Assembly: GCA_963422735.1 (NCBI GenBank)
Contig: OY730476.1
Location: forward strand, 480,001-544,000
Direction of reading: 5' to 3'
DNA from: Candidatus Latescibacterota bacterium
GTDB lineage: Bacteria > Latescibacterota > UBA2968 > UBA8231
Length of the DNA: 64,000 bases
Shown piece by piece: positions 2,858 through 24,024 of this stretch. Positions within the stretch are counted from its first letter, which is position 1. Every line of letters begins with the position of its first letter. The notes beneath the pieces are model-generated. The model saw only the letters and a list, made by a program, of their open reading frames with translations, had not been told where the DNA came from and ran no database searches. A program made the position numbers and the translations under genes.

Positions 2858-4408
2858 TCAGTTCTTATAGAGGATGACCAACTCGACGTCAGTCAGCAGC
2901 AAGTCGCAGGCAAGTTGGGGATGGCGTTGCAAGAGAACGACGTCTAAGCGATGGAGGCCACAGGCGGCTTGGTCGGCCGTGAGCGCAAAGCGGTGCCAGG
3001 CAGCGGCGCTGACATCGGCAATGGGTTGGGGGTCGCCGCCGTGGCAATAGCTAATATCCGGGTCGGACAAGACTTGGCCGTCCCAGCAGCAGCGGAACTG
3101 GTCGCCAGCGACCCAATCTCGCAGACGCAGACGCAAGGTAATGGTCGCCGGCGGATCCGCGCTCAAGTCGTCGGCAAGGTCGAGGTCGAAGTGGGGGCCG
3201 GTTTCCCGCATGGTCGGGTAGAGGGGGACGGGTAGGGTGCCGCGCAGCCGGTCGTGCTGGTACGCGCCGCGCCAAGCCCCTGTATGCTGGCGGAAGCGGT
3301 GGGTCGCGCTGTAGAGCTTGTCTTGGCGGCGCAGGGTCTGAACCGCGCCCACTTGGGTTAGCAACTCGCGCTTTGAATCGCGGTTGGCGTGCCAGTTGAA
3401 CGCGTATATACCGGTCGCGCCTTGGCGGTGATACTGCATGGCCGTGGCTTTGGTGCGCATGTTGTGGCGGACCGATTCGTCTTCGGGGCCGGCGGCCGGG
3501 CCGGGGACGCCGCCGTCGAACCCTGGATAGAGGGCGATGTCGCTGTCGGCGCACAGGGCGCGGAAGGCACTGACCTCAATGGCTGGATCGGTAGCGGCGG
3601 CACCGGCTGGGATCAGGATATCGACGAGGTTTTCCCCTACCCAAGTTTCCACGTCGTAGCCAATGCGGTGACAGCCCTCGATGGAGCCGGCGACGCGGGC
3701 CGCTAGGTAGAAAGGCCGGCCGCGCTGTTGGGCGAGTTCGTCGGTCAGTTGCCGCGCCGCCCGCATGAAATCGGTGAGGACGTAGCGCAGGCGATAGGCA
3801 TGGTCGGCGGGGAAGTGGAAGGGGTGGCGTTGCCAGTCGAGTTCGACGCCGTCCCAGGGGTAGTTTTGGCAGACTTCTCGCAAGTGCTGGAAGCGATTTT
3901 CGCGCACTTGGGGGATGGCCATATTCCACGACAGGGCGAACCACTCCTCGGTATCCGCGCCGAGCAGCCATTCGGGGTGGTCCTTGCGCAGTTGAGTCAG
4001 CTCGGTGTGGTGCAGGGTCTGGAGGTCGGCTAGCTGAGCGCCGTTGAAGTGATTGTCGTTCATGCGCAGCGAGGCATACACGTGCAGGCCGAGTTGGTGG
4101 CCGCGGTCGATGATGGCCTCTTGGGGGTCTTCGCCTCGCTCCAGCATGCGGCGAATGTTTTCGGTGTGCGCGTAGCTAGCAGCATTCTCGTAGCGGCGTT
4201 GGTGAGTGTCGCCGAGCAGTTCGAGCGCGTCGCTTGGCCAGCGCGTGGCGTGTTCGCCCACGCACCAAAATAGGGCACCGACCTGGGTGTCTTCGAGGGG
4301 GGCGTACGCCTTGTCGAGAAAGGCGTCCATGGACTGGGGAACGGGCGAGTAGCCGTGGGGTGCGCCGTCCCAGTTATAGATGATGCCGTAGTCAGCGGGA
4401 TGGGGCAT
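2858..4408 (-). CDS. Glycoside hydrolase-like family 10 (GHL10/DUF187-type) TIM-barrel protein
   Basis: IIYNWDG, YASLRMNDNH, HPEWLLG, YPWDGVELDWQRHP, GATGIYAFN motifs. Confidence 0.75.
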   Translation of the reverse strand: MPHPADYGIIYNWDGAPHGYSPVPQSMDAFLDKAYAPLEDTQVGALFWCVGEHATRWPSDALELLGDTHQRRYENAASYAHTENIRRMLERGEDPQEAIIDRGHQLGLHVYASLRMNDNHFNGAQLADLQTLHHTELTQLRKDHPEWLLGADTEEWFALSWNMAIPQVRENRFQHLREVCQNYPWDGVELDWQRHPFHFPADHAYRLRYVLTDFMRAARQLTDELAQQRGRPFYLAARVAGSIEGCHRIGYDVETWVGENLVDILIPAGAAATDPAIEVSAFRALCADSDIALYPGFDGGVPGPAAGPEDESVRHNMRTKATAMQYHRQGATGIYAFNWHANRDSKRELLTQVGAVQTLRRQDKLYSATHRFRQHTGAWRGAYQHDRLRGTLPVPLYPTMRETGPHFDLDLADDLSADPPATITLRLRLRDWVAGDQFRCCWDGQVLSDPDISYCHGGDPQPIADVSAAAWHRFALTADQAACGLHRLDVVLLQRHPQLACDLLLTDVELVILYKN

Positions 4409-9357: not shown

Positions 9358-9370
9358 AGGAGGTGTGCCT

Positions 9371-10918
9371 ATGAACAGACGCAGACTGCCCATTGGCATT
9401 CAGACCTTCCACAAAATTCGGGAGCAGAACTGCTACTACGTCGATAAGACGGCCTACATCCGGCGGCTGCTCGACGAGGGTACACACTACTTCCTGTCGC
9501 GTCCACGGCGCTTCGGCAAGAGCCTGTTTCTGGACACGCTCAAGGAAGTATTCGAGGGCAACGAGCCGCTGTTTGAGGGACTGTACATCCACGACCGCTG
9601 GGACTGGTCGGTTCGCCATCCCGTCCTGCGACTCAGCTTTGGCAGCGGCAACTTTAAGGAGCCCGGCTACGTGGAGGCCTCTCTCATGGAGCAACTCGCC
9701 GCGGCCGAACGCCGGTCAGAGGTCGTCTCCGAGTACGCCACGGCACCCGGACGTTTTTCCTCTCTGCTGGAGGCACTCCACGACCGAGCCGGGCAGCCGG
9801 TGGTGGTGCTGATCGACGAATACGACAAGCCGATGCTCGATGCGCTAGAGGTGCCGGAGATCGCCCGCGCCAACCGCGACTTTTTGCGCGGCCTCTACGC
9901 GGTCATCAAGGACAGCGACGCGCACGTCCGCTTCACGTTCATTACCGGGGTGAGCAAGTTTTCTAAGGTGAGGCTGTTTTCCGGCCTCAACAATCTCACC
10001 GACATCACCTTAGACCCGCGCTACTCGGCCCTCTGCGGCTACACCGATGCGGACTTGGATACCGTGTTCGCACCGGAGCTTCCCGGCTTGGACCGGAACC
10101 AGATCCGCGACTGGTACAACGGCTACCGTTGGCGGGGCGAAGAGAAGGTGTACAACCCCTTCGATATTCTGCTCCTGTTCGACAAGCGCACCTTCGGGGC
10201 CTACTGGTTTGAGACCGGTACGCCGACATTTCTGGTTGAAACGCTGTGCCAGCGTCGCGTCCGTTCCCTCGAACTCGACTCTATGATCGGCAGCGATGAG
10301 TTGCTCTCGACCTTTGACGTGGATGATATAGCGACCGAGGCGCTGCTGTTCCAGACAGGCTATCTGACGATAACAGCGGAAGAAGATCTCGGCGGTGCAC
10401 GGGTCTACCGCCTCGGCTATCCCAACCGGGAGGTGCGACAAAGCCTCAACGAGAGTTTGCTGCGCTACCTCGTGCGGGATTCGACGCGGCAGATGGCCAA
10501 CAGTGTGCGGCTGTATCGGCTGTTGGAGGCCAATGATTTCGCCGGGCTGGAGACGCTCTTCCACGCTTTCTTCGCCAGTATTCCCTACGAGTGGTACACC
10601 AACAACGACATCGCCGATTACGAGGGTTACTACGCGAGCGTGTTCTACTCCTATTTCGCCGGGCTGGGGCTGGACATCACAGTAGAGGATAGCAGCAGCC
10701 ACGGCCGGCTGGACATGGCGGTTCTGTTCGACGGCCGCGTCTATCTGTTCGAGTTCAAGGTGGTCGAGATGGCGTCTGCGGGTGCAGCTATGAAGCAGTT
10801 GCAGGAGCGGCGGTATGCAGATAAGTACCGCGCTTTGGACCAGCCGATATACCTAATTGGCGTGGAGTTCAGCAAGGGTGAGCGCAATGTCGCGGCGTTT
10901 GACGTGGAGCGCGCCTGA
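9371..10918 (+). CDS. AAA-ATPase-like domain plus PD-(D/E)XK nuclease (PDDEXK_9) protein
   Basis: LPIGIQTF, YVDKT, SRPRRFGKS Walker A, LIDEYDKP Walker B, C-terminal GRLDM...YLFEFK; RBS AGGAGG. Confidence 0.92.
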   Translation: MNRRRLPIGIQTFHKIREQNCYYVDKTAYIRRLLDEGTHYFLSRPRRFGKSLFLDTLKEVFEGNEPLFEGLYIHDRWDWSVRHPVLRLSFGSGNFKEPGYVEASLMEQLAAAERRSEVVSEYATAPGRFSSLLEALHDRAGQPVVVLIDEYDKPMLDALEVPEIARANRDFLRGLYAVIKDSDAHVRFTFITGVSKFSKVRLFSGLNNLTDITLDPRYSALCGYTDADLDTVFAPELPGLDRNQIRDWYNGYRWRGEEKVYNPFDILLLFDKRTFGAYWFETGTPTFLVETLCQRRVRSLELDSMIGSDELLSTFDVDDIATEALLFQTGYLTITAEEDLGGARVYRLGYPNREVRQSLNESLLRYLVRDSTRQMANSVRLYRLLEANDFAGLETLFHAFFASIPYEWYTNNDIADYEGYYASVFYSYFAGLGLDITVEDSSSHGRLDMAVLFDGRVYLFEFKVVEMASAGAAMKQLQERRYADKYRALDQPIYLIGVEFSKGERNVAAFDVERA

Positions 10919-12389: not shown

Positions 12390-12418
12390 TAGACACTTCA
12401 ACTAACAGTAACTATAAT
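12390..12418 (+). promoter_or_regulatory. Sigma70-type promoter for the murG-HEAT/mraY operon
   Basis: TAGACA (12390-95), 17-bp spacer, TATAAT (12413-18) in an AT-rich stretch. Confidence 0.7.
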
Positions 12419-12500
12419 AGATTATTAATGTTTATGAACTCGCCCCTCGCTGCGAAGAAGGCGGCGAAGCGCGTCCAATTGCCGAGACGACCTTACAAAA

Positions 12501-14513
12501 ATGAAATATTTGCTCACCGGCGGCGGCACGGGTGGCCACGTGTACCCGGCCTTGGCCATTGCCAACGAAATTCGGCAGACGCGGGCAGACGCCGAATTCC
12601 TCTACGTGGGCCATCGAGACAAACTGGATGCTTGGGTCGTGCCCGAGCAGGGGTACCCCATCCGCTTTGTGCGCGCCCGTCCCTTCCCTCGCACGCGTTC
12701 CCTTATTTCCCTGTTGCTATTCGCCTGTGCGCTCGCGGTCGGGGTTGTCCAAGGGGTGCTCATCCTCTTGCGCTACCGGCCCCAAATTATCATCAGCACG
12801 GGCGGCTTCGTCAGTGCGCCGATCCTCTTCGCGCATGGTGCGCTGGCCAAGGTCGGCCTTTCTCGTGCTCGCGTCTTTATCTACGAGCCGAATGCCCACC
12901 CTGGGCTTTTAAACCAAATTACCGGGCGGCTGGCGCAGCGAATTGGCGTGGCGTTTGAGCAGGCGGGCCGCTGGTTCGACATGAAGCGGGTGGCTGTAGT
13001 CGGCTATCCGGTGCGTCGCTCTTTTTTAAACCTCGATCGGCCGACCGCGCGGGAAAAGTTGGGCATTGCCCCAGGCCGCAAGGTCGTTCTCGCCTTTGGC
13101 GGGTCGGGTGGTGCCAAGGCCATCAACGAGGCCGTGCTCGAAGCCTTGCCCCTCTGGTGTGCGGCCGGGCTGGTGATCATCCACGTCACCGGCCGCTACA
13201 AGGGGCCGGATTACGACGCCGTGGCTGAGGCTGAGGCCGCTCTGGCCGCGATGGGGATGGAGGACGAATCCGACTGGTACCGCCGCCTCGATTACGCGGA
13301 TCAGATCGCCGATCTGATCGCAGCAGCCGATCTGGTCATTTGCCGGGCGGGCGCAGGTACCCTGACCGAGATGGCGGTCAGCAGGACGCCTACGCTGATT
13401 GTGCCGCTGCCGACATCGGCTGAAGACCACCAGGTGCTGAACGCTCGGGAGATGGAGCAGATAGGGGCCGCTCAGGTGCTCTATCAGGAGGCGTTTTGGG
13501 ACAACGCCTGCATCTTTAGCGGACTGGACGGCAAAAAACTGGCTCAGCAGGTGCTCGCGTTGTGCGCCGACGAGGAGCGCTTGCAGGCCATGGGCGAGGC
13601 CGCCAAGACCATGCCCAAGGCCAACAGCCTCGAACTGATCACGGCTGAGCTGGACAGCCTCATCGCCGGGCAGCGCCCGCCGGCACTGCGCTTGGAGTTG
13701 CCTCCGGCCAAAAGCGGTCTGCCGACCGCCCCCAACGCCCTGTTGCGCTGGGTGCAAGCGCGGGTCGCAGAGTTGGGGGGCGTGGAGGCGATGGAGCGCG
13801 GCGAGTTAGCCTATCTGCGCTATCAAGCCGATCGCCTGCTCGTGTCCGAGGGTTGGTGCGAAATCCCGCTAGGGCGGCGCAATGTGGGCATCAAGCTCGT
13901 TGCGGTCTTAAACTACCAAGAGCGGCTGCCATTGCTGCTACACATCCTCACCGACCGCACCCCGACCGGGTGGGTACGCCGTTTTTGCGGCGGGGACTTC
14001 CACCACGGAGGCATTGTGCGTCGCAATGTGGTCGAATACGGCCTGCGCGGCTTGGGGGCGACCGACGCGCAAACCCGGGCCGCGCTGCTGAACGCGCTAG
14101 AAGCGGACCCCTACTTCGAGGTACGAGCATGGTCGGCGCAGGCCCTCGGCGAGATGTTTGCAGCCGATGGCGAGATCGAAAGTGCGCTCTGCGCGGCCCT
14201 CGACGATAGCGCGCCGGAAGTGGTCGTCCAAGCCCTGAGTGCCCTTGGGAAAATAAGCCACAATCCCGACCTGCTAGCGCGGCTACGTCGCTTCTACTTG
14301 CACCCGAACTGGCAGTTCCGCGAGCAGGTCGTGCTAGTGCTGATCGAATTTTTGCAGCGCGGCGTCTTGGAGCCGGCGCAATTGGAGCGCGATCTCGACC
14401 AAGTCTTGATCTCAATGCCTTATTTTAAGCCGGAGTTCACCCTCGGCGCGCACCTGCGCGAATTGGCCGAGCACGTGCGCGCCGGCTTGCCACTGGCGGC
14501 CTCGCAGCGATGA
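12501..14513 (+). CDS. murG: MurG-like GT28 glycosyltransferase fused to a C-terminal HEAT-repeat domain (670 aa)
   Basis: GGGTGGHVYPALA, GGSGGA..IN, ICRAGAGTLTE, EDHQVLNA; about 280 extra residues with DPYFEVRAWSAQALG and LDDSAPEVVVQALSALG. Confidence 0.85.
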   Translation: MKYLLTGGGTGGHVYPALAIANEIRQTRADAEFLYVGHRDKLDAWVVPEQGYPIRFVRARPFPRTRSLISLLLFACALAVGVVQGVLILLRYRPQIIISTGGFVSAPILFAHGALAKVGLSRARVFIYEPNAHPGLLNQITGRLAQRIGVAFEQAGRWFDMKRVAVVGYPVRRSFLNLDRPTAREKLGIAPGRKVVLAFGGSGGAKAINEAVLEALPLWCAAGLVIIHVTGRYKGPDYDAVAEAEAALAAMGMEDESDWYRRLDYADQIADLIAAADLVICRAGAGTLTEMAVSRTPTLIVPLPTSAEDHQVLNAREMEQIGAAQVLYQEAFWDNACIFSGLDGKKLAQQVLALCADEERLQAMGEAAKTMPKANSLELITAELDSLIAGQRPPALRLELPPAKSGLPTAPNALLRWVQARVAELGGVEAMERGELAYLRYQADRLLVSEGWCEIPLGRRNVGIKLVAVLNYQERLPLLLHILTDRTPTGWVRRFCGGDFHHGGIVRRNVVEYGLRGLGATDAQTRAALLNALEADPYFEVRAWSAQALGEMFAADGEIESALCAALDDSAPEVVVQALSALGKISHNPDLLARLRRFYLHPNWQFREQVVLVLIEFLQRGVLEPAQLERDLDQVLISMPYFKPEFTLGAHLRELAEHVRAGLPLAASQR

Positions 14514-15616
14514 TCTACTACCTCGGAATTTACCTGCAAGATGCGGTCGAGGCTCTGTCGTTTTTGCGCTTGGTTGATTCGATCAGCTTTCGCGCCATCT
14601 GCGGCGCGATCACTTCGTTGATCCTTACCATTCTCTGCGGCGGGCGGGTCATCCTCTATTTCTACGGTCGGGGCCACCGCGACATGCCCCGCGACTATCT
14701 CAGCTCCGAGGCCGTCAGCAACCAAGCCAAAACCTATGGCGGCGGCCTAGTAGTCGCTGCGATCTTGATCAGCATCGGCCTGTGGTGCAAGCTGCACAGC
14801 CTCTTCGTCCTATTCTGCGCGGGGGCGATTGTCTGGTTTGCCGCGCTCGGCTGGATCGACGACTTCCTCAAGGTGCGCTATCGCTCTAGCGATCGCGGGT
14901 TGTCCGAGACGGCCAAATTGGCACTGCAAATAGCCTTTGGAATGGGGTTTGGTGCTGCGTACGTCACCCAAGTGTTCCCGGCGGAGTCGGCTGGCTTGGC
15001 GACCCAGCTCTATCTGCCCTTTTTCAAAAATCCGGTTCTCGACCTTTCGTGGGGCTATGTGCCTTTTATAGCCTTTACCGTGACGGCCATCTCCAACTCG
15101 GTCAATTTCGCCGACGGGATCGACGGCTTGGCTATTGTGCCGACTTCTTTTGTCGTGGCCGTCTTCGGGGTGTTCGCCTATGTGTCCAGCCACGCCGAGA
15201 TCTCGGCGTTCCTCATTTTTCCCTTTATGCCGGGCGTGGGGGAGGTCGCCGTGATCTGCTCTATCGTCTTTGGGGCCTGCCTCGGCTTTTTGTGGTTCAA
15301 TTCCTATCCGGCCAACGTCATCATGGGCGATACCGGGTCCATGGCATTGGGCGGCTTGTTGGGCACGGTCGCCGTCTTGGTCAAACAGGAGTTCCTCTTC
15401 CTGATCGTCGGGGGGATCTTCGTCGGCGAGACCCTGTCGGTGGTGATCCAAGAAAAGATCGGCATCCGGTGGCTGGGGCGGCGTTTTTTCACCCGCTCGC
15501 CGATTCACCACCACTTCCAACAGCGCGGCTTGGCCGACACGAAGATCGTCATTCGCTTCTGGATCGTGGCTGGCATTTTGGCGTTGTGCGGCTTGGCGAC
15601 GCTCAAGATCCGCTAG
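14510..15616 (+). CDS. mraY: Phospho-N-acetylmuramoyl-pentapeptide transferase, divergent
   Basis: GWIDDFLK, NSVNFADGIDGLA, FNSYPANVIMGDTGS, PIHHHFQ, LATLKIR; ATGA overlap with murG. Confidence 0.88.
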   Translation: MIYYLGIYLQDAVEALSFLRLVDSISFRAICGAITSLILTILCGGRVILYFYGRGHRDMPRDYLSSEAVSNQAKTYGGGLVVAAILISIGLWCKLHSLFVLFCAGAIVWFAALGWIDDFLKVRYRSSDRGLSETAKLALQIAFGMGFGAAYVTQVFPAESAGLATQLYLPFFKNPVLDLSWGYVPFIAFTVTAISNSVNFADGIDGLAIVPTSFVVAVFGVFAYVSSHAEISAFLIFPFMPGVGEVAVICSIVFGACLGFLWFNSYPANVIMGDTGSMALGGLLGTVAVLVKQEFLFLIVGGIFVGETLSVVIQEKIGIRWLGRRFFTRSPIHHHFQQRGLADTKIVIRFWIVAGILALCGLATLKIR

Positions 15617-15625
15617 TAGTGTAGT

Positions 15626-15765
15626 AGTGGTTAGTGGCCAGTGATTAGTGGTTAGCCCCCTAGAGGGCGTTGCGGGGCTGCACTAGCCACACTAGCCGCT
15701 GGCCACTGGCCACTGGCCACTAACCACTAACCACTAACCACTAACCACTAACCACTAACCACTAA
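15626..15765. repeat. Heptamer tandem repeats (CACTAAC and CACTGGC units) with an inverted arm (GTGGTTA/GTGGCCA)
   Basis: About 7 CACTAAC and 3 CACTGGC units at roughly 15697-15765; complementary units at 15626-15655. Confidence 0.9.
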
Positions 15766-21146: not shown

Positions 21147-21580
21147 ATGAGTACATTTTGGAATTGGCCCGGCTCCCGTTGGTGGCGTGCGGCAGTGGAA
21201 GCCAGCGAAAACAAATTCCGGAAAGTATCCTCCCAGCTTGTCGAAGAAGGCATTTCCGATCCGAACGAGTACGGAGACCTATTGGAACAAGCGGCTAAGC
21301 TCGAGCAAGAAATCGAAACTCTAAAAAAAGAGCAAGAGCGGACGAAGAAACTGGAAGACGAGGCCACCAAAACTCTCGCCGAATACCGCGAGCTACGCAG
21401 TGAGTTGAGTGACAAACGCCGAAGTTTCGCGGAGAAGGCGTCAGACGAGAGCATCCGCGTTGAAATAGACGAACACGCAAACTGCAAGAATCTCGCGGAA
21501 GATTTGACCGGGATTCTTGGCCTTGAGCGCTTTGAGGGTGACCGTCAGGAACTCGCCCGGAGAATTCAGCCTAAACAGGC
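21147..21580 (+). pseudogene. Deleted TrlF/Ppl-like PHP-AAA ATPase: N-terminal 14 aa joined to an internal coiled coil
   Basis: WNWPGSRWWR matches the family start (GSRWWKFDFHTH) but the PHP motif is absent; coiled-coil segment follows. Confidence 0.55.
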
Positions 21581-22666
21581 TCACCGCACCTAAGCGCGAC
21601 GAATTTGCCGACGAGTTGGCCAGCATGGCTAATGGTCGGGGAGGGACGGTTTTGCTGGGGGTTGAAGGCGAGAGCCGCGAAATCCTGGGCATCCCAGTTG
21701 ATCGGTTAGACGCGGTCGGAGCGTGGGTGAGGGAAATCTGCAACGACTCTGTGGATCCTCCACTCGACGCGGAGATCCGAAAGATCGAACTTTCTAGCGC
21801 AGACGGCAGTCTCGTTGCCGTAATTTGCGTCGAAACCGTCCGCAGTCTGTTTGTCCACAAGAGTCCAAGCGGCTATTTCCGCAGGATCGGCAGTTCAAAG
21901 CGCGAGATGTCGCCTGAGTTGCTCGCCCGGCTGTTCCAAGAGCGCAGCCAGAGCCGCGTAATTCGGTTCGACGAGTCGCCGGTGCCTGGGACCTCACCGG
22001 AAAATCTGGATGATGGATTGACTCGCCGATTCTTACGGGAGGATGGTGTTTTGACCGAGGACGATCTGCGTAAACTTAGGATCGTCGCCAACGACGAAGA
22101 CGACATCGCACGGATCACAGTCGCCGGTATGCTGTTATGTACTCGCGATCCGGGACAGTGGATGCCACATGCACAGATTCAGGCGGTGAGCTATGTGGGC
22201 GAGCGACAGGACATCAATTATCAAAGCGATGCTCGCGACTTTGGTGGGCCGCTTGATGATCAGGTTATTGAGGCGTTGCACTTCGTGCGCAGGAATATGC
22301 GTGCGGTTTTTGAGGCACTCGTCAACGCGGTCGCCCACAGAGATTACTCAATGGTGGGGGCGAGGATACGTCTGCACATGTTCGGGAACCGTCTCGAATT
22401 CTATGTACCAGGAGCACTGGCGAATACGCTCACACCAGACAGTATGGATTTGCGGCAATACAGCCGAAACGAGTTGATCGTTTCGCTGCTGGCGCGTTGC
22501 CCTGTTTGGGAGAGCGAGGAATTGGGGCGGACGCGTATATATGGATCGAAGAGGGGATGGAGTGCCGATCATTCTAAACGAGAGCCGTGCATTCTCGGGC
22601 CGTCTCCCCGAGTACAGCCTGATTGGCGACAGCGAGTTGCGGTTGGTGATTTGGGCGGCGTCATAG
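21581..22666 (+). pseudogene. AlbA_2 (Schlafen-like) plus HATPase_c_4 ATP-binding protein, degraded
   Basis: DELASMANGRGGTVLLGV, YFRRIGSSKR, AVFEALVNAVAHRDYS; no start, probable internal deletion after NMR, frameshift near 22538 before MDRRGDGVPII. Confidence 0.75.
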
Positions 22667-22671
22667 CCCAA

Positions 22672-24024
22672 TCAATCGCCAAAAAACTCTCCGTAGAGCG
22701 AGCGCACGGCCGCGGGAATGTCTCCGGCCTTGATGCCGAACATCATGCTGACCTCGCTCGACCCCTGATTGATCATCTCTAGGTTGACGCGGGCGCGGGC
22801 AAAGGCACTGCAGGCGCGGCCTGCCAAGCCAATGGTGTGGTGCATGCCCTCGCCGACGATCATTGCCAAGGCGAGGCCGCGGGCGACCGACAGTTCATCT
22901 ACTTCTAGCTCGGTGCGAATCCGGCGTAGGACCCGCTCTTCGGCCGCGCGGTTGAAATACGACTCGCGCACGATCACCGACATGTTGTCAATGCCCGAAG
23001 GAGTGTGCTCAAAGGGGATTCCCTCGTCCTCAAAAATGGCCAGCAAGCGGCGGCCAAAGCCCACTTCTCGGTTCATCAGGTACTTACTGATGTACACGCT
23101 GCAAAACCCGTCGGTGGCGGCGATGCCGACGACTGGGTGATCGCCGACCGTGCGCTGGGGGACGATGCGGGTGCCGGGTGCCTGAGGGTTATTGGTGTTT
23201 TTGACGACGACCGGAATCCCAGCGTGGAACACGGGTTCGAGGGCTTCGTCGTGAAATACGGAAAACCCCGCGTAGGACAGCTCGCGCATCTCTCGGTAGG
23301 TAATCTCGGAGACAGCGACCGGGTCGGCCACGAGCGCGGGATTGGCCGCAAAGACCGAGTCCACGTCCGTGAAGTTTTCGTACACGGTCGCATCGACGGC
23401 CGCGGCGAGGATCGCGCCGGTTATGTCCGAGCCACCGCGCGAGAAGGTAACGACGCGGCCCGCGGACGAATAGCCGAAAAAACCGGGGAAAATGGTGAGG
23501 CCCGGGCGGTCCTTTAGCTGGCGCAGCTTGCCGTAGGACGCCTGCAAGACGCGGGCGTTGCCCGGCTCTTCCGAGAGGATGAGGCCGCCCGCGCCCGGGT
23601 CGAGATAGTGGGCTTCGGCTCCGCTATGGCGCAGGTATTCGGCAACTAGGCGGGCGCAGTTGTCCTCGCCGCCGGCCTTCATAGCGTCCGCGTAGAGCGC
23701 TTCGTCGCTCGTGCTCATGGCCAGCCGCCGCTCAAAGTCGGCGACAATGGGCGCGAGTGCGGTGTTCGGCAAACCAAGGTCGCCAACGATAGCGGCATAG
23801 CGATCGATGACGCGCGCGAGTGCGATGCACCCGTCTTGGTTGGTTAGCTGGGCGCGGACCACCTCGATGAGGAGATCGGTGACCTTGGTGTCCTCCCGGT
23901 TGCGCTTTCCCGGGGCCGAGACCACGACGAGCCGGCGTTCTGGATCGGCGGTGACAATGGCGCATATTTTCTCTATTTGCTCGGCTGACGCGAGGGACGA
24001 GCCGCCGAATTTAGCTACTTTCAT
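22672..24024 (-). CDS. lysC: Aspartate kinase
   Basis: KVAKFGGSSLA, VVVSAPG, TFSRGGSDITG, C-terminal ACT domains. Confidence 0.95.
   Translation of the reverse strand: MKVAKFGGSSLASAEQIEKICAIVTADPERRLVVVSAPGKRNREDTKVTDLLIEVVRAQLTNQDGCIALARVIDRYAAIVGDLGLPNTALAPIVADFERRLAMSTSDEALYADAMKAGGEDNCARLVAEYLRHSGAEAHYLDPGAGGLILSEEPGNARVLQASYGKLRQLKDRPGLTIFPGFFGYSSAGRVVTFSRGGSDITGAILAAAVDATVYENFTDVDSVFAANPALVADPVAVSEITYREMRELSYAGFSVFHDEALEPVFHAGIPVVVKNTNNPQAPGTRIVPQRTVGDHPVVGIAATDGFCSVYISKYLMNREVGFGRRLLAIFEDEGIPFEHTPSGIDNMSVIVRESYFNRAAEERVLRRIRTELEVDELSVARGLALAMIVGEGMHHTIGLAGRACSAFARARVNLEMINQGSSEVSMMFGIKAGDIPAAVRSLYGEFFGD

Follow-up and report, generated by a model that had tools for sequence, protein, structure and literature searches.

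A MurG-HEAT and MraY operon in Latescibacterota

We analyzed a 64,000-nucleotide stretch of a Candidatus Latescibacterota genome (assembly GCA_963422735.1, contig OY730476.1, positions 480,001 to 544,000), here called the window, in which two plus-strand genes of the MurG and MraY families form an operon. The first, murG-HEAT (12501-14513, +), was delimited by its open reading frame (ORF) and Pfam domain matches and encodes a protein of 670 amino acids (aa). The second, mraY (14510-15616, +), was identified by its ORF and a TIGR00445 match and encodes a phospho-MurNAc-pentapeptide transferase of 368 aa. The murG stop codon and the mraY start codon overlap in a shared ATGA, so that the two genes are coupled in the order murG then mraY, as the first-pass annotation of this DNA, made from its letters alone, had described. 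The 670-aa protein is composed of a MurG glycosyltransferase (GT28) domain recognized by Pfam (12501-13652, +; aa 1-384), a proline-rich linker marked by low model confidence and by the alignment (13653-13730, +; aa 385-410), and a C-terminal HEAT/ARM alpha-solenoid domain of about 260 aa defined by a HEAT_2 match and AlphaFold2 (AF2) models (13731-14510, +; aa 411-670).

The only MurG and MraY of the genome lie outside the dcw cluster

The genome searched is complete, a single contig of 4.95 Mb, and the family searches of it returned a single match each for MurG (TIGR01133) and MraY (TIGR00445), and both matches fall in the operon at 12501-15616; the sole other GT4 match was weak, with 30.8 bits to the MraY model. 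The division and cell wall (dcw) cluster is found at about 1.007-1.020 Mb of the contig, approximately 0.5 Mb from the operon at 0.492 Mb, and consists of mraZ, rsmH, ftsI, murE, murF, ftsW, murC, an unassigned ORF, ftsA, and ftsZ, in that order. The family searches of the genome showed mraY, murD, and murG to be missing from this cluster, with murD present as a single copy at a third locus (C1:206438-207748) that is likewise outside it. None of the genome's six matches to the Mur ligase family PF08245 falls in the window, and no further mur or fts gene was found among the 17 ORFs scanned (window positions 5-24024). The operon is, as first described, a self-contained unit away from the dcw cluster, with no murC, murD, murE, murF, or ftsW nearby.

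The same single-copy state extends through the phylum. Among 151 phylum genomes sampled, 145 had a MurG match and 143 an MraY match, always one per genome except in a few cases where the gene was split over two contigs; in none of the 151 was murG or mraY present in a second full copy. In five module-bearing genomes of other lineages, in which MraY was counted, the MraY of the module was the only one above the cutoff. The first-pass annotation had interpreted the operon as a second, paralogous lipid I/lipid II pathway and had proposed a search for canonical dcw copies elsewhere in the genome; that search found none, the dcw cluster itself lacks both genes, and the second-pathway interpretation has to be given up. 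Because these are the only copies in the genome and the genes are single copy in the phylum, we assign to the operon the housekeeping synthesis of lipid I and lipid II.

MurG-HEAT retains the features of a MurG glycosyltransferase

Pfam recognized both halves of the glycosyltransferase in the 670-aa protein, PF03033 (GT28 N) at aa 4-148 (E value of 5.3e-22) and PF04101 (GT28 C) at aa 195-376 (E value of 7.3e-30), and the E. coli MurG structure 1f0k aligns with aa 4-344 (E value of 7.7e-30). In this alignment, the GGTGGH loop as well as the C-domain glutamate and glutamine of MurG-HEAT coincide with those of 1f0k; within the loop, G7 to G9, G12, and H13 are invariant in 47 fused homologs, as are E290, Q311, and N314. 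We presume that the glycine-rich loop and the donor-binding E/Q pair of the C domain have the roles known from the E. coli structure literature. The TIGR01133 score of MurG-HEAT, 226.6 to 230.3 bits, is under the equivalog cutoff of 250.25. Across the phylum, fused MurGs score 176 to 244 bits, and dcw-type MurGs mostly score 250 to 325, with about 20 copies of genus g2 at 238 to 250; the shortfall is modest and is common to the whole fused clade. Among ten deep-branching fused proteins, two carry a JGI product name, which is MurG. Since this protein is the only MurG in a genome that also encodes murC, murD, murE, murF, ftsW, and ftsI, we take it to be the GlcNAc transferase that would act on lipid I.

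MraY is a bona fide family member with clade-specific changes

The mraY product scored 277.7 to 277.9 bits with TIGR00445, well above the equivalog cutoff of 192.05, and the solved MraY 9zno matches it over aa 1-368 (E value of 5.8e-73). The sequences IDDFLK, NSVNFADGIDGL, and PIHHHF all occur in its translation, and we take them to play the roles of the DD, NxxNxxDGxDGL, and HHH motifs of MraY enzymes. No variation was seen among 18 relatives at residues D117, D118, N196, N199, D202, D205, and H333. The protein had been called a divergent MraY, a description that is only partly apt: it is above the equivalog cutoff and matches a solved MraY from end to end, but its score falls short of the 383 to 408 bits that dcw-type MraYs from three other phylum families reach with the same model.

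Compared with five canonical MraYs, the clade to which this protein belongs shows specific changes at D58, V218, F297, G318, R324, and T344. In addition, the DGPESH motif in the loop between the first and second transmembrane helices (TM1 and TM2) is replaced in the HEAT-linked MraYs, which have a conserved R-D instead. G318, R324, and T344 are near the HHH motif. On the known topology of MraY, which we assume to hold here, D58, the DGPESH motif, and the region 318-344 would belong to cytoplasmic loops.

The HEAT domain occurs fused to MurG, fused to MurJ, and alone

HEAT_2 (PF13646) matches aa 528-614 of MurG-HEAT with 41 bits against a gathering cutoff of 27.7. The AF2 model of the full-length protein was confident (predicted local distance difference test [pLDDT] score of 90.3; predicted template modeling [pTM] score of 0.87), and aa 385-670 modeled alone gave an all-helical solenoid (pLDDT of 89.8, pTM of 0.87). 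Inside the otherwise confident full-length model, the linker at aa 385-410 forms a block with a pLDDT of 64 to 69, and it is not conserved in the alignment. Conservation in the C-terminal domain is seen in the motifs RN.GVKL, GF/I-RRN, and DPYFEVR, and R507, R508, D536, Y538, and E540 are invariant in the 47 fused homologs. A fold search with the domain returned generic HEAT/ARM repeats (alphaRep, importins, the PP2A A subunit, and E. coli YibA) with Z scores of up to 16.7, and scores of 14 to 16.7 are usual for helical repeats and indicate the fold alone. A protein-atlas search with the C-terminal domain yielded generic HEAT clusters only, with recognition under the usual level.

When 1.84 billion representative proteins were searched with the HEAT domain, without the use of a profile, 139 matches were obtained at an E value of at most 1e-10, which fall into size classes of about 650 to 780, about 1300, and about 280 to 335 aa. 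Pfam scans of 24 matches revealed five architectures: MurG-HEAT (650 to 780 aa), MurG-MurJ-HEAT (about 1300 aa; five proteins), MurJ-MurG-HEAT (one protein), MurJ-HEAT (one protein, possibly truncated), and HEAT alone. Since the MurJ-HEAT protein (P0181, 771 aa) clusters with a 1305-aa member, it may be a truncated triple fusion. The MurG-MurJ-HEAT fusion was present in four separate assemblies labeled Planctomycetota. MurG-HEAT itself is also found in metagenome-assembled genomes (MAGs) labeled Bacteroidia and in others labeled Syntrophobacteraceae or Deltaproteobacteria, and close relatives of it, 84 to 91% identical, come from MAGs labeled Candidatus Latescibacterota and, in some cases, Gemmatimonadota.

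For stand-alone HEAT proteins, we rely on three loci of family f3 as genuine cases. The 301-aa match P0154 was rejected as probably a fragment, its relatives being full MurG-HEAT fusions in three of four loci, and several other matches of about 300 aa start with a MurG tail and are likely fragments as well.

A canonical MurJ was also sought in the genome of the window, and the search returned, as the sole candidate, a weak PF03023 match (40 bits) in a 554-aa MOP-family protein encoded about 16 kb before the window (C1:462671-464335; L073:703-2367). This protein scored 34 bits with TIGR01695, for which the cutoff is 235, and matched the fused MurJ with an E value of 0.005 only. When MurJ-HEAT was used as the query on the genome, the HEAT part alone was matched.

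mraY is the constant neighbor of the HEAT domain

In all 54 loci for which downstream sequence was available, mraY directly follows the end of the HEAT-coding region. This was the case at 39 of 42 loci of relatives (the other three contigs end there), at both loci of two more phylum families with the fusion, at all six loci labeled Bacteroidia or Planctomycetota, at all four loci of the Syntrophobacteraceae type, and at the three f3 loci, where the HEAT gene stands alone. In family f3, a murG of normal length is located in the dcw cluster, and a separate HEAT gene of 296 to 311 aa is immediately 5' of mraY. From this arrangement, it follows that MraY, and not MurG, is the constant companion of the HEAT domain. 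At the f3 loci L074:9807-12598 and L077:5852-8607, the HEAT and mraY genes are preceded by two YkuD-type L,D-transpeptidase genes and by a gene for a protein of 239 to 296 aa that has no Pfam matches. Together, these genes make up a compact group related to peptidoglycan and located outside the dcw cluster. The gene of 239 to 296 aa, upstream of the stand-alone HEAT gene, was considered as a degenerate MurG and rejected (hhalign probability of 0.15).

Within the phylum sample, the HEAT domain was detected in 62 of 63 genomes of family f1, 2 of 2 of f3, 4 of 5 of f8, and the single genome of f14 (1 of 1). No genome had it in families f2 (0 of 30), f4 (0 of 19), f10 (0 of 13), and f9 (0 of 6) or in six smaller families (0 of 11).

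HEAT-linked MurGs and MraYs form clades of their own

In a quick maximum-likelihood tree of the glycosyltransferase domain (89 rows), all 55 HEAT-fused MurGs formed one group with a Shimodaira-Hasegawa-like approximate likelihood ratio test (SH-aLRT) support of 91. The 32 dcw-type MurGs of the phylum that lack the fusion fell outside this group, among them those of f3 and f4, two families from the class that also contains the family of the window. The 25 HEAT-linked MraYs likewise grouped together (SH-aLRT of 87) in a tree of 32 MraY rows, to the exclusion of the E. coli MraY, a deltaproteobacterial one, and three dcw-type copies from the phylum. The trees of both genes bear out the suggestion that MurG-HEAT co-occurs with a distinct MraY clade. 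Of two observations that had been coupled in the first-pass annotation as arguing against a second pathway, the first, that these are the only copies, was made in the genome searches; in place of the second, that they branch with the housekeeping (dcw-type) orthologs of the phylum, the trees recovered a separate HEAT-linked clade.

The distribution of the HEAT-linked clades departs from the taxonomy. The module may be either an old paralogous one that was subject to differential loss or one that spread laterally and displaced dcw copies.

In two genomes of families f2 (G025) and f4 (G085), both from the same class as the family of the window, the sole MraY-like gene (loci L085 and L086) is highly divergent, scoring 115 to 120 bits with TIGR00445, below the cutoff. 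It is 26 to 31% identical to the MraY of the window, has a branch length of 5.4 in the tree, and is located outside the dcw cluster, where no HEAT gene could be detected beside it. The f4 genome has kept its murG in the dcw cluster; around the murG of the f2 genome, no other dcw gene was found within the surrounding 19 kb.

A proposed membrane-step module with a HEAT accessory domain

Taking together the observed single copies, domain content, conserved adjacency, fusions, and separate clades, we favor, with a probability of roughly 0.7, the reading that the operon supplies the only enzymes with which the organism makes lipid I and lipid II, a housekeeping module in derived form in which the HEAT domain is an accessory of the membrane steps. 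In this scenario, the operon would represent the membrane stage of peptidoglycan precursor synthesis after it had left the dcw cluster, and the HEAT solenoid, encoded immediately upstream of mraY, would be a dedicated accessory of that stage. A cytoplasmic solenoid may dock on the remodeled cytoplasmic loops of MraY and thereby hold MurG, and MurJ where it is fused, beside MraY. MurG would then receive lipid I directly, as would the flippase lipid II, a channeling of substrates between the neighboring active sites of MraY, MurG, and possibly MurJ. The termini of MurJ are cytoplasmic, and the solenoid of MurG-MurJ-HEAT would for this reason be cytoplasmic as well, like MurG.

Direct binding of the HEAT domain to MraY, one part of this scenario, we regard as an even bet. 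Modeling MraY and the HEAT domain as a complex yielded a median interface score (ipSAE) of 0.42 (runs of 0.43, 0.42, and 0.16), with the best of three controls at 0.00, a contact agreement of at least 71%, and a partner pLDDT of at least 77. For comparison, 58 of 80 solved complexes and 2 of 110 mismatched pairs attained the mark, but only 7 of those 80 did so with an ipSAE of at most 0.60, as did both mismatches. The prediction lends weak support to such binding.

Several observations weigh against the proposed scenario. The MraY-HEAT score is a weak one, with a value of 0.16 in one run out of three. The 54 loci are not independent, about half of them coming from one genus, and the conserved adjacency of the HEAT-coding region and mraY could reflect mere coexpression. 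The ATGA overlap was seen in close relatives only, with gaps of 18 to 106 nucleotides (nt) in distant homologs. The two trees were obtained by quick searches with one E. coli sequence as the sole outgroup, their key nodes have SH-aLRT values of 87 to 91 and are not starred, and the long-branch f2 MurG and f2/f4 MraYs attach beside the HEAT-linked clades. The fold search yielded no specific functional relative of the domain, and HEAT/ARM solenoids are generic protein binders. Finally, the TIGR01133 score of MurG-HEAT is under the cutoff, and the exact substrate of this enzyme is assumed from its status as the sole copy.

The generic nature of the fold is also the starting point of the alternative that survives best, though we consider it unlikely: the HEAT domain would be a scaffold for another partner, such as the Mur ligases, MreB, FtsA, FtsZ, or the flippase, and its adjacency to mraY would reflect coexpression only. 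A HEAT fold is a generic solenoid that binds proteins and peptides, and its fusion to MurJ in MAGs labeled Planctomycetota makes the link to the flippase as direct as the link to MraY. A role of MurG as a scaffold for Mur ligases, described in PMC6420597, and the weakness of the MraY-HEAT prediction would be in line with this alternative. However, the HEAT gene of f3 stays beside mraY with murG in the dcw cluster, and the HEAT-linked MraYs form a clade of their own, with changes that include two loops placed in the cytoplasm by the assumed topology. The controls of the complex prediction, in which MraY was the one partner covered, moreover scored 0.00.

The f3 arrangement bears as well on the possibility that the HEAT domain is not a scaffold but a regulatory or sensing module, one that, for example, autoinhibits MurG or binds a lipid-linked or nucleotide-sugar ligand. 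The invariant charged cluster of R507-R508-N509 together with D536-Y538-E540 could form a ligand site, and the full-length pTM of 0.87 suggests that the glycosyltransferase and HEAT domains are held in a fixed arrangement. Nevertheless, the HEAT domain works in f3 as a separate protein beside mraY, with an unfused MurG encoded elsewhere, and neither Pfam nor the fold search matched a known ligand-binding family, so that we hold a regulatory module to be improbable. Least credible of all is a second lipid I/lipid II-type pathway that provides an alternative precursor, recycling, or a stress bypass beside canonical dcw genes, since, however well the position outside the dcw cluster, the sub-cutoff MurG, the clade apart from dcw-type copies, and the substitute lipid II synthase encoded outside the dcw cluster that is described in PMC8092295 would suit it, the complete genome has a sole MurG and MraY, its dcw gaps are exactly at the missing genes, and there is no second full copy in the 151 phylum genomes or second MraY in the five genomes of other lineages.

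Returning to a HEAT accessory of the membrane steps, a bolder form of this reading can be put forward, to which we give somewhat less than even odds. The HEAT domain would be a previously undescribed, dedicated adaptor that builds a physical MraY-MurG(-MurJ) "lipid II factory," and the module, composed of MurG-HEAT or MurG-MurJ-HEAT and an MraY that coevolved with it, would be a distinct, probably old alternative that displaced the dcw enzymes in lineages labeled Latescibacterota, Planctomycetota, Syntrophobacteraceae, and Bacteroidia.

Relation to known systems

The closest comparison is with canonical dcw-encoded MraY and MurG, exemplified by the E. coli order mraY-murD-ftsW-murG. The enzymes are of the same families and presumably catalyze the same reactions, lipid I synthesis followed by lipid II synthesis, they are single copies of the essential type, and the solved structures match them by sequence. 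In contrast to the canonical arrangement, the genes described here are outside the cluster in the order murG then mraY, MurG is a 670-aa protein with a HEAT solenoid, the DGPESH motif of MraY is replaced, and both proteins belong to clades apart from the dcw-type enzymes of the phylum.

Natural Mur chimeras offer a second comparison. Passages of PMC10214165 list MurE-MurF, MurC-Ddl, MurC-MurB, MurG-MurC, MurD-FtsW, and MraY-MurG chimeras and take them as evidence that the enzymes of peptidoglycan precursor synthesis form a complex. Unlike the chimeras in those passages, the fusion studied here adds a nonenzymatic HEAT domain to MurG and, in MAGs labeled Planctomycetota, MurJ as well. Neither MurG-HEAT nor MurG-MurJ fusions are mentioned in the passages of PMC10214165 considered here, the supplements of which may list more types. 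The MurG2 of actinomycetes, as described in PMC8092295, is an alternative lipid II synthase that can replace the dcw-encoded MurG. Like MurG-HEAT, it belongs to the MurG family, and its gene is not part of the dcw cluster; MurG-HEAT, in contrast, is the only copy and carries an extra domain. As for the solenoid, E. coli YibA (1oyz), a bacterial HEAT-repeat protein of unknown role, and the alphaRep in 7p0h, a designed binder, have the same alpha-solenoid fold (Z scores of 14.2 and 16.7, respectively), but their sequence relation to the HEAT domain is at the level of the repeats only, and neither has a link to MurG, MurJ, or MraY.

A full-text literature search found no report connecting a HEAT-repeat domain with MurG, MurJ, or MraY and none of a MurG-MurJ fusion, in agreement with the initial impression that no system with this architecture had been described; the papers listed for MurG and HEAT repeats deal with ATR/ATM kinases and further eukaryotic HEAT proteins and seem to have no bearing on bacterial MurG. 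The architecture is a variant of a known system, with a HEAT adaptor that is tied to MraY, fused to MurG, and elsewhere fused also to MurJ. For the question of whether MraY, MurG, and the flippase MurJ, all of which are antibiotic targets, act as one channeling complex, MurG-HEAT, MurG-MurJ-HEAT, and the stand-alone HEAT protein encoded beside mraY constitute natural test constructs; the fusions could also serve as ready-made assemblies for structural work. If the proposed coupling is true, the triple fusion found in nature would provide direct genetic evidence for coupled synthesis and flipping of lipid II. The case illustrates, furthermore, that location outside the dcw cluster does not by itself mark a mur gene as a spare, as the relocated and fused version is the sole one here.

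Surroundings of the operon and other features of the window

Upstream of murG, at a distance of about 80 nt from its start, the sequence TAGACA-17-TATAAT (12390-12418, +) resembles a sigma-70-type promoter. It fits 11 of 12 consensus positions, which justifies the earlier description of the site as near consensus; such agreement with a consensus does not show that the site functions. The 5-kb region contains 5 promoter-like sites, compared with 1.4 ± 1.3 in shuffled sequences. The operon is flanked by a gene for an SDR reductase upstream and, downstream, by a small minus-strand ORF without family matches, followed by recG.

Contigs from four metatranscriptomic libraries (three studies) contain relatives of murG-HEAT and mraY that are 90 to 95% identical to the genes of the window. 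One contig covers positions 12500-14440, nearly the entire fused gene of close relatives, and a second one bridges the murG/mraY junction (14364-14693); 5' of position 12500, the contigs differ from the window. These contigs are a weak hint that the operon is expressed and prove neither its transcription nor a start site.

The 3' end of mraY adjoins a block of heptamer repeats (15614-15765, with no strand assigned) made up of TAGTGGT-type copies followed by seven copies of CCACTAA, the two being partly inverted relative to each other. RNA-library contigs of relatives pass from position 15617 directly into the sequence of the window beyond the repeats. Because those contigs lack the block at this site, we consider it an insertion in the source genome; it marks the 3' end of the operon and has no part in its function. 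A 21-mer of three CCACTAA units was found in 153 registers at several dozen sites of the genome (reversed control, 0). The block resembles the short tandem heptamer repeats of cyanobacteria.

Three long ORFs of the window, at 2858-4408 (-), 9365-10918 (+), and 21517-22782 (+), encode products of 516, 517, and 421 aa, respectively, which had no NCBIfam match at an E value of at most 1e-5. At the start of the window, an ORF of 570 aa (5-1717, +) encodes a caspase-like domain of the EACC1-associated type, recognized by NF047832 with an E value of 3e-12, below the cutoff of that model.

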